A stretch of DNA of 64,000 bases from Armatimonadota bacterium (GCA_029907255.1 JARYMF010000006.1:70426-134425); one strand, 5' to 3'; numbered from the stretch's first letter, positions 49,618 to 53,486 are shown. Made by a program: numbers and translations. Notes: generated by a model not told the origin, from the letters alone.

Positions 49618-49701
49618 TGGTGGGCGAGGTGGGAGTCGAACCCACATGGGTTTCCCCGGCGGATTTTAAGTCCGCTGCGTCTGCCATTCCGCCACTCGCC
49701 C
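49618..49701 (-). tRNA. tRNA-Leu (anticodon UAA)
   Basis: GGGCGAGTGGCGGAATGGCAGACGCAGCGGACTTAAAATCCGCCGGGGAAACCCATGTGGGTTCGACTCCCACCTCGCCCACCA, with a long variable arm. Confidence 0.85.
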
Positions 49702-49782
49702 TGTGGGGAGAGTGATTTTTTAAAATTATATCATAATACAACTTCAACGACAATATTAGGGCGCTTAGATAGTAACCTTTCG

Positions 49783-49811
49783 TTGACAAAGAGCACTGCC
49801 CTTGTTATTAT
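49783..49811 (+). promoter_or_regulatory. putative sigma-70 promoter TTGACA-17-TATTAT for the NurA-HerA cassette
   Basis: Read directly about 80 nt downstream of the tRNA-Leu. The track ORF's TTG start coincides with the -35 element. Confidence 0.35.
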
Positions 49812-49860
49812 TGGCAAAACACACGTTCGCCTTACTTTTTCTGCTAGACCGGTTGCCAAC

Positions 49861-51021
49861 ATGCTTGAACTAGAGAAAATCGCACCCGCCGTGAAAGAGT
49901 TTGCCCGTGAAAAAGCAGATGTACTTAGGGGGCTGGGCGATCAATTCTCGGTGGCGAATAGAGTTATCAACGACATATGTTCAGATGTTAACCGCGCCCA
50001 CAGCCGAATCGAAAAAGCCAGGACCTCCTGGCTGATTGCTGACTTCCTTGAGCCCCTGGATGTGGCTCACCAGTGTCCCACGTGTCCACATCCCCATGCT
50101 GTAATCGCGGTTGACGGCTCACAGATCGCCCCTGGCAAGCATGAAATTGCATTGTGTTTTCTAATTAACACGGCGGCTGTTGTTATCTACTACGGAACCA
50201 GCGAGCGGCCATATGCCGAAACAAAACCCGAGTTGTGCTACACAGAAGATAAACTATATGAAGACTATGCTGGCCGTCGCGTGCAAATTGCTGATAAATT
50301 TCTCGGCATCCGCCGAACCCTCGCCGAAAGCGACCACCTCGAGCAAACACTTCGAGAGGTTGCGTCAAAGGGCATCCCGGCTGTGGCACTGTGGGACGGA
50401 AGCCTAATACGATGGACCCTTGAAAGCGAGCCAACAGACTACAAAAATAGGGTGCTAGCTCAATACCTTAAGGTATTCGAAACTGCGAGAGAAAAACGCA
50501 TACCAATTGTAGGCTATATTAGCGACCCGGGAAGCAAAGATTTCGTCAACTCCCTTAGGATAATGCTCTGTCCAGACGAACAAGTCGACTGCGACAAATG
50601 CGGGCGAGAGCCACCTCGCCCTTGTGATGCGGTAAATCAACTCAGCGATGGAGTAATATTTGAGAGGCGTTTGGAGCCCGGTTGCCGATCTGCTCTCTTC
50701 ACTAGCAGATCAAAAATACTGGCACAATATGGAGAACATGAAGTTCAAGCTTGCTACTTGAACCTTGGGCAAGAGGTAGCTAGGCTGGAAATCCCAAAGT
50801 GGGTTGCGGAGGACGACGAGCTTCTTAATATGGTCCATGCTGTGTGCTATGACCAAGCAGAAAAAGGCCGGGGCTATCCTGTTGCCCTCTCACAGGCTCA
50901 CGAGCGAGCAGTCGTTACCGCAAAAGACAAAGCTGAATTCTTCGAATTGATAAAGCACTTTTTCGTAAAGCATGGCGTACGTGTAAGCCACAGTTTGAAA
51001 AGGATATCGAAGGGATTCTAA
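49861..51021 (+). CDS. NurA-like nuclease domain protein
   Basis: IAVDGSQIAPG (N-terminal Asp motif), ALWDGSLI and VGYISDPGSKDFVNSLR resemble the NurA 5'-3' nuclease fold. There are two Cys pairs (CPTCPHPH, CDKCGREPPRPC). The start is taken at ATG 49861 (MLELEK); the track uses TTG 49783. Confidence 0.5.
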   Translation: MLELEKIAPAVKEFAREKADVLRGLGDQFSVANRVINDICSDVNRAHSRIEKARTSWLIADFLEPLDVAHQCPTCPHPHAVIAVDGSQIAPGKHEIALCFLINTAAVVIYYGTSERPYAETKPELCYTEDKLYEDYAGRRVQIADKFLGIRRTLAESDHLEQTLREVASKGIPAVALWDGSLIRWTLESEPTDYKNRVLAQYLKVFETAREKRIPIVGYISDPGSKDFVNSLRIMLCPDEQVDCDKCGREPPRPCDAVNQLSDGVIFERRLEPGCRSALFTSRSKILAQYGEHEVQACYLNLGQEVARLEIPKWVAEDDELLNMVHAVCYDQAEKGRGYPVALSQAHERAVVTAKDKAEFFELIKHFFVKHGVRVSHSLKRISKGF

Positions 51022-51069
51022 TTTCATTTTCTTTTACATAGCATCAAAAAGCTAGAGTAGGAGCAAAAG

Positions 51070-51804
51070 ATGACATCCGAGGAGTGCATTGGCGAGATAA
51101 TTGAAGCGACAACTACGGAATTTCTTGCCGAGAGCCGCGAGCTCCATGCCCCACCGGCATTCGGCAGCTTCGTGAAGGTTCCTTTCGACTTGCAACAAAC
51201 AAGTCCGGAATCTCTGCCAACCATAACTAGCTCACAAGAAGAAAAAGATCCCTTCGAGGAACCATGGAAGCGTTTGGAGGGAACCTTCAGCCAATCATAT
51301 AAATCGCTCGTCGAAGGCGAGGAGGAATTACAGATTCCACCTGCCATCTTCGGCATCGTCTACCACTCAGCCACGATGAATGTTGACTCAAACCGACGGC
51401 CCAGGGCTTACTGGAAAGACGAAGAAAAGCTAAAGGAAGAACAACCTGAGCTTGCAGAATGGCTGTTAATGACCGAATTTAGAGCCATAATTATTGGCTT
51501 CTCAGAAAATGGACGCATCCGTCGGTACCTGCCGCCTCGGCCGCCTAAGATACACTATTTTGTCTATCCTTGCACCACCGATGAAATTCGTGCGATTACA
51601 CAAAGTATGGACTTTCTTAGAACGTTGTCAAGTTTCCGCAACGCCCCATCAGACGAAGTAATTGCGGCATGCATTCGTGAAGCGGCAAGAGCACATCAGC
51701 CAAACGATTTTGAATTCAAAGTTGCCGCTGGGAAAAAACTTGCCAATCTGTTAAAAGATGACTATGAACGCTTGGAAGCAATCATAAGGAGGGTTGCTCC
51801 ATGA
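51070..51804 (+). CDS. hypothetical protein, unknown accessory component between the NurA-like and HerA-like genes
   Basis: 244 aa with the RBS AGGAG and a 4 nt ATGA overlap with the HerA-like gene. No motif could be recognised. The N-terminal half is acidic and the C-terminal half basic. Confidence 0.5.
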   Translation: MTSEECIGEIIEATTTEFLAESRELHAPPAFGSFVKVPFDLQQTSPESLPTITSSQEEKDPFEEPWKRLEGTFSQSYKSLVEGEEELQIPPAIFGIVYHSATMNVDSNRRPRAYWKDEEKLKEEQPELAEWLLMTEFRAIIIGFSENGRIRRYLPPRPPKIHYFVYPCTTDEIRAITQSMDFLRTLSSFRNAPSDEVIAACIREAARAHQPNDFEFKVAAGKKLANLLKDDYERLEAIIRRVAP

Positions 51805-53486
51805 ATGACCGCACTGGAAACGAAAACAAGGGATTTGTGGCTCCACCCAGTCGAAAAGAAATCGGTTTAGTGGTGAGCGGCTCTCTTCTTGAAGGCCTTA
51901 AGATGAAACTCCATCCAGACCAATCGGTCGAGGATATCCGTGCAGGTAAGTTTGTTGTCATCGAGGGCGAAAAGCATGAATTCTTTTCGATGATTACCGA
52001 CGTTGTGCTTGAGACTTCAATCCGCGGCTTACTCGACAATCCTCCGAGGCGCGATAATGAACTTATGCACCAGGTTATCAGCGGCACAGCAACATATGGA
52101 ACAATTCAACTTCGTCCGATGCTTATGCTCCCCTCGGGTTCAGAAGGCGAACTCCGACCTGTTAAAACGATTCCTGGACACTTTAGCCCAGTTTTTACTG
52201 CAGATAAAACAGATGTCAGCCGGATATTCGGCGATGAGAAGGCAGACCCAAAGTTCTTCCACATTGGCACGCCACTCGATATGGAAGATACGCCAGTCTG
52301 TCTGAACCTAGATCGCTTCGTCGAACGTAGCAACGGAATATTCGGCAAATCCGGCACAGGAAAAACGTTCCTAACCCGCATCGTTCTCTGCGGCATCATC
52401 AAGAACCGCAAGGCTGTCAATCTAGTCTTCGATATGCACAGCGAATACGGTTGGAAGGGAACGATTGAAAGTGATGGCGGCAGGGCAGAAGTTCGAGGCT
52501 TAAAGCAATATTTCCAGGACCGTGTTGCTGTGTTTTCCCTCGACCCTGAATCATCTAGGCGGAGGGGAGCACCAGTTGATTTCGAGGTAAAAATTCCTTA
52601 CAGCCAGGTAACCGTTGATGATATTATACTCCTCCAAAATGAACTTAATCTCGCCCCTACTGCTTTGGAGACATCATACGCCCTCATAAATAAATTCGGG
52701 GAGAGTTTGTGGCTTAGCAAACTAGTAAAAATGAGCGCTGAAGAAATGGTTGAATTTTGCCAAACCAACAACATACACCAGCGCTCTTTGGAAGCACTGC
52801 AGAGAAAACTTAAGGTGCTTACCGAAAGCTGTAAATCATTCTTAATTGATGATTCTTTGCAACGTGTAGATATAGATGCTGTCAAACAAATAATGAGCTA
52901 TCTTGATGATGGCAAACACGTAGTGCTCGAATTTGGTCAGCATACCCAGCCCCTTAGGTACATGCTGGTCGCCAACATACTTACTAGGCGGATTCACGAT
53001 GCCTACGTAAAAAAGACTGAGGAAGCTCTGGGTGGAAGTGAGTCAAAGCCGACGCCCCTTATAATTACCATAGAGGAGGCACACAAATTTCTCAGCCCGC
53101 CGGTGGCGAATCAAACAATATTTGGAACAATCGCTCGCGAAATGCGTAAGTACAATGTGACGCTGTTAGTTGTGGACCAGCGACCTTCAGGGATTGACGA
53201 TGAGGTATTATCGCAGGTTGGCACGCGAATAACTTGTCTATTAAACGATGAGAGGGATATTGACGCGGTGCTGACAGGCGTGAGCAACGCATCAGGATTA
53301 AGAGGCGTGCTTGCAACCCTTGACAGTAAGCAGCAAGCATTGATTCTTGGTCATGCAGTACCAATGCCTATTGTGATTCAAACACGCTTTTATGACGATG
53401 AGGACTTCCGCCTCAGCATGGGACAAATTCCTTCTGACAAGCTGGACGAACAAATAGAACATGAAATAAGCCGTGATTTCGCATAA
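51801..53486 (+). CDS. HerA-like (DUF87/FtsK-HerA superfamily) hexameric ATPase
   Basis: N-terminal HAS-barrel-like region, Walker A GKSGTGKT, and the hallmark LLVVDQRPSGIDDEVLSQVGTRITCLLNDERD arginine-finger region. Confidence 0.8.
   Translation: MNDRTGNENKGFVAPPSRKEIGLVVSGSLLEGLKMKLHPDQSVEDIRAGKFVVIEGEKHEFFSMITDVVLETSIRGLLDNPPRRDNELMHQVISGTATYGTIQLRPMLMLPSGSEGELRPVKTIPGHFSPVFTADKTDVSRIFGDEKADPKFFHIGTPLDMEDTPVCLNLDRFVERSNGIFGKSGTGKTFLTRIVLCGIIKNRKAVNLVFDMHSEYGWKGTIESDGGRAEVRGLKQYFQDRVAVFSLDPESSRRRGAPVDFEVKIPYSQVTVDDIILLQNELNLAPTALETSYALINKFGESLWLSKLVKMSAEEMVEFCQTNNIHQRSLEALQRKLKVLTESCKSFLIDDSLQRVDIDAVKQIMSYLDDGKHVVLEFGQHTQPLRYMLVANILTRRIHDAYVKKTEEALGGSESKPTPLIITIEEAHKFLSPPVANQTIFGTIAREMRKYNVTLLVVDQRPSGIDDEVLSQVGTRITCLLNDERDIDAVLTGVSNASGLRGVLATLDSKQQALILGHAVPMPIVIQTRFYDDEDFRLSMGQIPSDKLDEQIEHEISRDFA

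Follow-up and report, generated by a model that had tools for sequence, protein, structure and literature searches.

A stand-alone HAS-barrel protein encoded between NurA and HerA in a conserved Armatimonadota operon

The nurA-MID-herA locus

The 64,000-nucleotide (nt) stretch of Armatimonadota bacterium DNA analysed here (GCA_029907255.1, JARYMF010000006.1:70426-134425; hereafter the window, with positions counted from its first letter) contains three tightly packed plus-strand genes, which encode a NurA-family nuclease of 386 amino acids (aa; nurA, 49861..51021), a 244-aa protein referred to here as MID, after its place as the middle gene (51070..51804), and a predicted hexameric translocase of the HerA/FtsK superfamily of 561 aa (herA, 51801..53486). 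These open reading frames (ORFs) had been described in a first-pass annotation made from the sequence alone, and our ORF check reproduces all three, along with the 4-nt ATGA in which the stop codon of MID overlaps the start codon of herA. The MID gene, a conserved 735 nt between nurA and herA, is preceded by a GGAG Shine-Dalgarno sequence 8 nt before its start.

A consensus scan of 6 kb (49400..55400) confirms the near-consensus sigma-70-like promoter proposed for the cassette, TTGACA-17-TATTAT with an extended -10 TG (49783..49811, plus strand, 11/12), as the top-scoring site in this interval, and its sequence and position make it the presumed promoter of the operon. No plus-strand terminator was found in the same interval from the promoter through the operon until past the downstream gene, which encodes an outer-membrane protein (OMP). 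On the other side of the promoter, ARAGORN places a tRNA-Leu(UAA) gene at 49618..49701. The cassette had been described as lying straight after this tRNA, which is indeed present, but the tRNA is on the minus strand, a divergent neighbour of the operon that points away from it, which puts the cassette 5' of the tRNA gene.

NurA matches the Pfam profile PF09376 over its full length (positions 1-254/254, 128.5 bits against a cutoff of 21, E=4e-37), which bears out its assignment as NurA-like, and an alignment of 20 orthologues shows residues D85 (of the motif DGSQ), E156, D179, D227, H293, D331, and H347 to be invariant. With these acidic and His residues assigned to the RNase H-like active site by analogy with published NurA structures, NurA is, to judge from its motifs, a catalytically intact nuclease. 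The start codon is taken as ATG 49861, since the alignment with orthologues, which are 385-392 aa long, begins at the very first residue; the 412-aa NurA of the public annotation begins at TTG 49783, where the -35 hexamer of the predicted promoter lies.

Two Cys pairs had also been noted in NurA, one of which is conserved within an invariant Cys4 cluster, C237/C244/C247/C255, whilst C72 and C75 are variable positions in the 20-sequence alignment, Chloroflexota and cyanobacterial orthologues included. The cluster (C-x6-C-x2-C-x7-30-C, residues 237-255, window 50569-50625), in which a variable-length loop precedes the fourth Cys, is thus kept across Armatimonadota, Chloroflexota, and cyanobacteria in this NurA clade, and may be a Zn or Fe-S site. 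To our knowledge no such cluster has been described for the solved NurAs, none of whose structures gave a sequence match at E<=0.01 in a search of the PDB.

HerA matches DUF87 (PF01935, 5e-33) and, at residues 21-72, the HAS-barrel profile PF09378 (3.5e-6, 27.5 bits against a cutoff of 25.2), with most HerA orthologues carrying a precomputed match to the latter. Walker A GKSGTGKT (182-189), Walker B IEEAH (424-428), and DQRPSG with R461 are invariant among 22 orthologues, and a PDB sequence search relates the protein to solved HerAs at E-values of 3e-23 to 1e-6. The HerA assignment of the first-pass annotation is therefore upheld, and the motifs indicate that this HerA is a catalytically intact ring translocase with its own N-terminal HAS-barrel. 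Scores against the NCBIfam HerA equivalogs, both archaeal repair and anti-phage, fall approximately tenfold short of their cutoffs (NF040937, 82 bits against 800; NF040819, 74 against 970; HerA_antiphage, 84 against 800; HerA_antiphage_2, 72 against 850), and the protein therefore belongs to a separate HerA clade. A bacterial-type HerA orthologue (P0243, 49% identity) is filed under the mussel Potamilus streckersoni on a 1.2-Mb contig, and is probably bacterial contamination of, or a symbiont in, the mussel assembly.

MID as a predicted stand-alone HAS-barrel protein

MID was initially thought to have no recognisable motif, which is true of the single sequence, with no match found in Pfam, NCBIfam, PADLOC, or PHROGs, but not of its family or its fold, both of which are HAS-barrel. 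Homologues fall into 110 clusters of 33-82% identity from at least three phyla, with identities of 49-82% within Armatimonadota, ~38% to a sister clade of shorter proteins (191-206 aa), and 33-37% to cyanobacterial members, and many of the sister-clade and cyanobacterial homologues carry a prior HAS-barrel annotation. Individually, 23 of 49 MID-family members match PF09378 (best 5.4e-10), the cyanobacterial P0088 doing so over profile positions 1-86/90 (36.9 bits, cutoff 25.2). The lack of a match in the window MID is explained by a variable acidic insert of ~50 residues that splits the barrel (residues ~40-91, window 51187-51342). The insert, which contains an invariant DPF, is specific to Armatimonadota MIDs. 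Within it, D60-P61-F62 is invariant and G71, F73, and G83 are near-invariant, yet model confidence is low there; the insert may be a short linear interaction motif.

The structure prediction proposed for MID alone was carried out from the family alignment, with AlphaFold2 returning a confident model (predicted local distance difference test, pLDDT, 85.7; predicted template modelling score, pTM, 0.78) that comprises a beta-barrel formed by residues ~6-38 and 92-167, followed by a helical bundle (170-242). The modelled barrel is six-stranded, of the HerA / ATP-synthase N-terminal type, and the best 50 Foldseek matches to the model are HerA chains only, the first being the HerA of the Thermococcus kodakarensis HerA-NurA complex (1.3e-7). 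MID is accordingly, in its modelled fold, a stand-alone HerA-type HAS-barrel that lacks the ATPase and carries an additional helical domain.

The relationship of MID to HerA is visible solely at the level of the Pfam profile and the fold. An origin of MID as a recent duplicate of the N-terminus of the neighbouring HerA was considered and rejected, as comparison of the family with Armatimonadota HerA by hhalign gave a probability of 0.2%. The family is acidic (median isoelectric point, pI, 5.0; range 4.6-6.5), for which reason a role of the barrel as a DNA binder resembling single-stranded DNA-binding protein was judged unlikely. A flag for PF27048 on the homologue P0018 was dismissed, the Pfam search giving a sub-threshold EIN3 match only.

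Conservation of the triad

Comparison of the neighbourhoods of homologues shows the triad to be conserved in Armatimonadota, the sister clade, and Chloroflexota. The order NurA-MID-HerA-OMP is found in 6/6 Armatimonadota genome loci, with the 4-nt overlap between MID and herA kept in five of these (L001, L002, L004, L005, and L006), and the three loci of the sister clade (L012, L016, and L022) have the order NurA-MID-HerA, with overlap in L012 and L022. At the Chloroflexota locus L021, a MID-family member identified by hidden Markov model (HMM; E=7e-50) overlaps herA, with nurA 1.6 kb upstream. Judged from these overlaps, MID is translationally coupled to herA across phyla. Further genes stand between nurA and MID at two of the loci, namely a DinB_2 gene with two small membrane ORFs in L021 (7198-8517) and a gene for a 616-aa DUF6923/beta-propeller-like protein in L012 (4026-5876), the MID/herA overlap being retained in both.

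Scanning metagenomes with the HerA alignment gave 80 orthologous loci (50-85% identity), partners being counted at the 49 testable loci whose upstream sequence extends for 2.2 kb or more. NurA and MID occur together at 10 of these, NurA without MID at none, MID only at 2, and neither at 37 (Fisher p=8e-9). MID lies between nurA and herA in all NurA-containing metagenome loci (14/14), and among the conserved neighbour clusters of this HerA clade it is the largest, so that the place given to MID by the first-pass annotation in a three-component arrangement is confirmed as a tight and specific linkage to NurA and HerA.

Chance insertion of MID into a canonical two-gene module, or its origin as a lineage-specific ORFan, might be suspected from the lack of database matches to the single MID sequence. 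This explanation is refuted by the breadth of the family, which comprises the 110 homologue clusters of 33-82% identity in at least three phyla described above, by its confident fold, by the conservation of its position and overlap, and by the number of nurA-herA loci of this clade that lack MID (0/14).

Where herA stands without NurA and MID, its neighbours are of housekeeping type (acpS-, comM-, and atpC-like, judged by eye from example sequences), and neighbour clustering revealed lineage-specific housekeeping synteny only, with no replacement partner. At Chthonomonadaceae-type loci herA retains the downstream OMP alone; the genes upstream were considered as divergent forms of NurA and MID, and were found to encode a PQQ/beta-propeller protein and unrelated small ORFs. 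The NurA clade containing the Armatimonadota-named P0505 is represented by one locus, L023 (a JGI metagenome contig), with nurA alone, beside gatB.

Genomic context

The cassette had been regarded as a possible acquired island on account of its tRNA and its seemingly unrelated flanks, an L,D-transpeptidase upstream and the OMP downstream. The proposed comparison of composition shows the cassette to be indistinguishable from the rest of the window, with a guanine-cytosine (GC) content of 0.47-0.50 against 0.44-0.51 in the flanks, relative synonymous codon usage distances of 0.128/0.151/0.112 for the three genes against a window mean of 0.143 +/- 0.030, and a GC content at third codon positions of 0.47-0.48 against 0.469 +/- 0.036. 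No flanking repeats resembling attachment (att) sites were found, only 14-nt chance repeats, and no integrase was found in the cassette flanks. The flanks themselves are syntenic in relatives, with a minus-strand tRNA-Leu(UAA) also 5' of nurA in L004 and L006, a tRNA-Leu(GAG) upstream of nurA in L001, and the OMP gene 3' of herA in L001-L006, L017, L018, and 8 metagenome loci. Islands that target tRNA genes insert at the tRNA 3' end, and the cassette is on the 5' side; the tRNA-Leu(UAA) is a syntenic landmark rather than an integration site. Neither the acquired island nor the unrelated flanks are therefore borne out.

A defensive function had likewise been suggested, in which the locus would be an anti-phage system of the HerA-plus-effector kind, resembling Sir2-HerA or DUF4297-HerA, with NurA as the effector, MID as an accessory, and the whole forming an island beside the tRNA. 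Profile searches, which support NurA and HerA in Pfam, lend this some credence, with HerA matching the generic PADLOC HerA models (best 8.3e-36), and the solved structures closest in sequence being defence HerAs (8wiv, SIR2/HerA, 3e-23; 9c1m, HerA-DUF4297); haloarchaeal operons of similar appearance also reside on megaplasmids. Against this, NurA and MID have no PADLOC match, and HerA reaches only 84 of the 800 bits required by HerA_antiphage. Composition and codon usage are those of the host, synteny among Armatimonadota extends to the flanks, tRNA included, and no att-like repeats surround a cassette that is on the wrong side of its tRNA. No relatives of MID were found among 72,556 plasmids, 50,697 phages, or IMG/VR, and the only matches to NurA and HerA among the same plasmids are haloarchaeal, at 22-27% identity. 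HerA has kept ~75% identity across the phylum, a pace of change unusually slow for defence genes, with identities of 74-77% among relatives in which the neighbouring OMP is just 35-45% identical, the behaviour of a slowly evolving housekeeping gene, and the neighbours of the cyanobacterial NurA are repair genes. A defence system is thus very unlikely, and the defence-island lead for this locus can be set aside as false.

Comparison with known systems

Among the closest known systems are the end-resecting NurA-HerA pairs of Deinococcus radiodurans and Thermus thermophilus (PDB 7F6D, 7WRW; PMC9960219, PMC5448004), which are likewise chromosomal, with nurA upstream of a HAS-barrel HerA, host-like composition, and neighbours unrelated to DNA metabolism. 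By analogy with these, HerA of the window would also be expected to feed double-stranded DNA to a docked NurA dimer. The Deinococcus and Thermus genes are, however, strict two-gene tandems, which in Thermus share an overlap of nurA stop and herA start (PMC5448004, PMC9960219), whereas here a conserved gene for a 244-aa HAS-barrel protein intervenes and overlaps herA, and the window NurA differs from theirs in its invariant Cys4 cluster. The Deinococcus HerA is also remote, failing to reach E<=1e-3 in the PDB sequence search with the window HerA. Unlike the archaeal HerA-Mre11-Rad50-NurA operon for double-strand-break repair (Sulfolobus 4D2I; T. kodakarensis HerA-NurA 9X1L), the window cassette neither contains nor adjoins Mre11 or Rad50 genes, and the archaeal operons as described have no gene for a stand-alone HAS-barrel.

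A layout shared with the window is found on four haloarchaeal megaplasmids, those of Natrinema zhouii (L024, NZ_CP084885.1), Halobaculum marinum (L025), archaeon DL31 (L026), and Halorussus salilacus (L027), where the order is SMC/Rad50-like ATPase, NurA, a hypothetical protein of 194-254 aa, and HerA, with the stop codon of the hypothetical gene overlapping the herA start by 1-4 nt in all four. The SMC-like ATPase and the NurA gene after it were seen in L024-L026, the record stretch of L027 ending before that region. Among themselves the middle proteins are homologous (38-62%), but the haloarchaeal NurA and HerA are only 22-27% identical to those of the window. Searches of the middle proteins against the MID family by hmmsearch and hhalign were non-significant (E 0.04-0.6 overall, 0.09-0.6 by hhalign), and the middle proteins have no Pfam match. 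The best local alignment with the MID family contains motifs that appear collinear by eye, including a conserved Cys. With no significant similarity, homology of the haloarchaeal middle protein to MID is possible but unproven.

The anti-phage systems Sir2-HerA/Nezha (8J4U, 8SUB, 8WLD), DUF4297-HerA (8XAU, 9C1M, 8ZIQ), and TdpAB (8WET) combine a HerA hexamer with an effector on the HAS-barrel side, and contain the solved HerAs closest by sequence to that of the window. The window cassette nevertheless lacks a Sir2, DUF4297, or TdpB partner, misses the corresponding thresholds approximately tenfold, and occupies a conserved and syntenic locus, unlike an island.

The cyanobacterial family named "HAS-barrel domain-containing protein" by NCBI (PF09378, for example in Okeania) is the family of MID, with 33-40% identity over the full length and a shared C-terminal helical domain and LPPxPP, DFLR, and DDYxRL motifs. 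The cyanobacterial members are shorter (191-222 aa), lack the acidic insert, and are encoded after ndhS. Our literature search found no paper on this protein, the name alone being available.

Proposed role of MID

Published NurA-HerA structures place a NurA dimer against the ring of HAS-barrels in hexameric HerA, from which duplex DNA is fed into NurA (PMC3326311, PMC9960219). The cassette is probably a vertically inherited chromosomal operon that encodes a three-component DNA-processing machine of NurA-HerA type, with MID as its adaptor or gate. Its housekeeping character is suggested by the conservation of HerA, the host-like composition, the position of the cyanobacterial NurA beside repair genes, the presence of DinB_2 in the Chloroflexota cluster, and the housekeeping-type neighbours of herA where it stands alone. 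In such a machine MID would be made in step with HerA, and would probably join the complex through barrel-barrel contacts at the HAS-barrel face. There it could act as a non-catalytic adaptor or gate, either coupling NurA to HerA or controlling the access of NurA to HerA, while the complex would thread duplex DNA through HerA into NurA, resulting in end resection or degradation. The role of the machine would then be housekeeping repair or recombination on the chromosome. Of the possible functions of MID, that of an adaptor is favoured over a gate or decoy.

Several observations weigh against this interpretation. The role of MID as an adaptor or gate is one that we infer from fold, gene overlap, and co-occurrence, and HerA retains a complete HAS-barrel of its own, so that an additional barrel is not obviously needed. 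Profile comparison gives no sequence similarity between the MID family and the N-terminus of the neighbouring HerA, and what NurA-HerA does physiologically in bacteria is itself a matter of dispute (PMC9960219). Neither NurA nor MID is near herA at 37 of the 49 testable HerA loci. The MID gene of Okeania, Spirulinaceae, and a third cyanobacterial lineage is unlinked from NurA and HerA and always follows ndhS, the gene for NDH-1 subunit S, at a distance of 49-57 nt. No HerA orthologue could be confirmed for cyanobacteria, since the top 120 HerA homologues all came from Armatimonadota, and the 30 representative HerA clusters added by name only Chloroflexota, Actinomycetota, an Asgard archaeon, and the probable contaminant of the mussel assembly. 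The unconfirmed cyanobacterial HerA is the main weak point in the claim that the trio always works together.

These cyanobacterial observations bear most directly on the possibility that MID is independent of NurA and HerA, being either a general small beta-barrel adaptor or a partner of NDH-1, with its position in Armatimonadota a matter of co-regulation or accident. At the cyanobacterial loci concerned (L007-L011 and L013-L015, with the MID gene at ~6001-6669 or 10001-10657), no NurA or HerA was found within 6-10 kb of MID, and this, with the position after ndhS in three lineages and the unconfirmed HerA orthologue, is what such independence would predict. We regard such independence as improbable. 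A cyanobacterial NurA orthologue does exist in Elainellaceae (38% identity), where it stands alone in a DNA-repair neighbourhood. At these loci (L019/L020, 10001-16800) the nurA gene converges on xseB-xseA, which encode exonuclease VII, recA lies 2 kb away, and endonuclease V is encoded nearby.

The acidity and fold of MID are also compatible with a negative regulator or decoy, which would mimic the docking barrel and thereby hold back NurA or block the HerA ring. The nuclease-translocase would be kept inactive in this way and be released by DNA damage or some other signal. MID shares the fold of the HerA docking domain without the ATPase, and is acidic, as is the face of Deinococcus HerA that binds the basic NurA (PMC9960219). 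It co-occurs specifically with NurA linkage, and the acidic insert of the Armatimonadota proteins with its invariant DPF could be a regulatory loop. Translational coupling of MID is to herA, however, and not to nurA, and no signal-sensing domain was found in the Pfam, NCBIfam, PADLOC, and PHROG searches. The present data do not separate a decoy from the adaptor favoured here, and we regard the former as unlikely.

Conversely, MID could play a larger part than that of an adaptor. It is possible, albeit short of probable, that MID is an obligate third subunit which builds a separate ring or collar, lying between dimeric NurA and hexameric HerA, and that the three proteins represent a distinct and ancient three-tier class of machine. 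Such a class would span Armatimonadota, Chloroflexota, and cyanobacteria, the genes being dispersed in the last of these, and possibly haloarchaea, with their SMC-NurA-X-HerA arrangement. In that event, the general architecture would be other than the two-component model worked out in Sulfolobus and Deinococcus.

NurA-HerA corresponds in archaea to the bacterial RecBCD and AddAB resection machines, and structural and mechanistic models of it all assume two components, with NurA placed directly on the HAS-barrel ring of HerA. A conserved and coupled third protein that copies the docking domain, carried by several bacterial phyla, points to a level of assembly or control at the interface of nuclease and motor that has gone unrecognised. 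The suggestion of the first-pass annotation that the locus may be an undescribed three-component variant holds, insofar as it differs from the published two-gene tandems (PMC9960219, PMC5448004) and as no description of a stand-alone HAS-barrel partner of NurA-HerA was found in the literature searched, while an early comparative-genomics mention may still exist. MID as a third subunit of NurA-HerA is thus apparently undescribed, and the cyanobacterial "HAS-barrel domain-containing protein" family gains a likely functional context.

Neighbouring genes

The OMP gene downstream of herA (53473..54936, plus strand) encodes an LptD/DUF3769-like protein, with a match to LptD_N (19.1 bits) that is below threshold. 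Its true start is likely GTG 53500, 14 nt past the herA stop, and the gene is probably co-transcribed with herA. The OMP gene follows herA at a spacing of at most ~15 nt across Armatimonadota, including the Chthonomonadaceae-type loci without nurA and MID (L001-L006, L017, L018, and L029-L040). The OMP is a conserved downstream neighbour, and at most a candidate functional member of the NurA-HerA system.

The surrounding genes are otherwise of housekeeping type, including ileS and genes for a YkuD transpeptidase, an ASCH protein, and a thiamine-binding protein, and fit a core chromosomal region. From translations read by eye, secG, two tatA-like genes, and a pfkB-type kinase gene are probably also nearby. 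Elsewhere in the window, a minus-strand cluster of tRNA genes lies at 35844-36294 (Thr-CGT, Phe-GAA, Asp-GTC, and Val-TAC), and a second tRNA-Leu gene, with the anticodon CAG, lies at 57856-57941.

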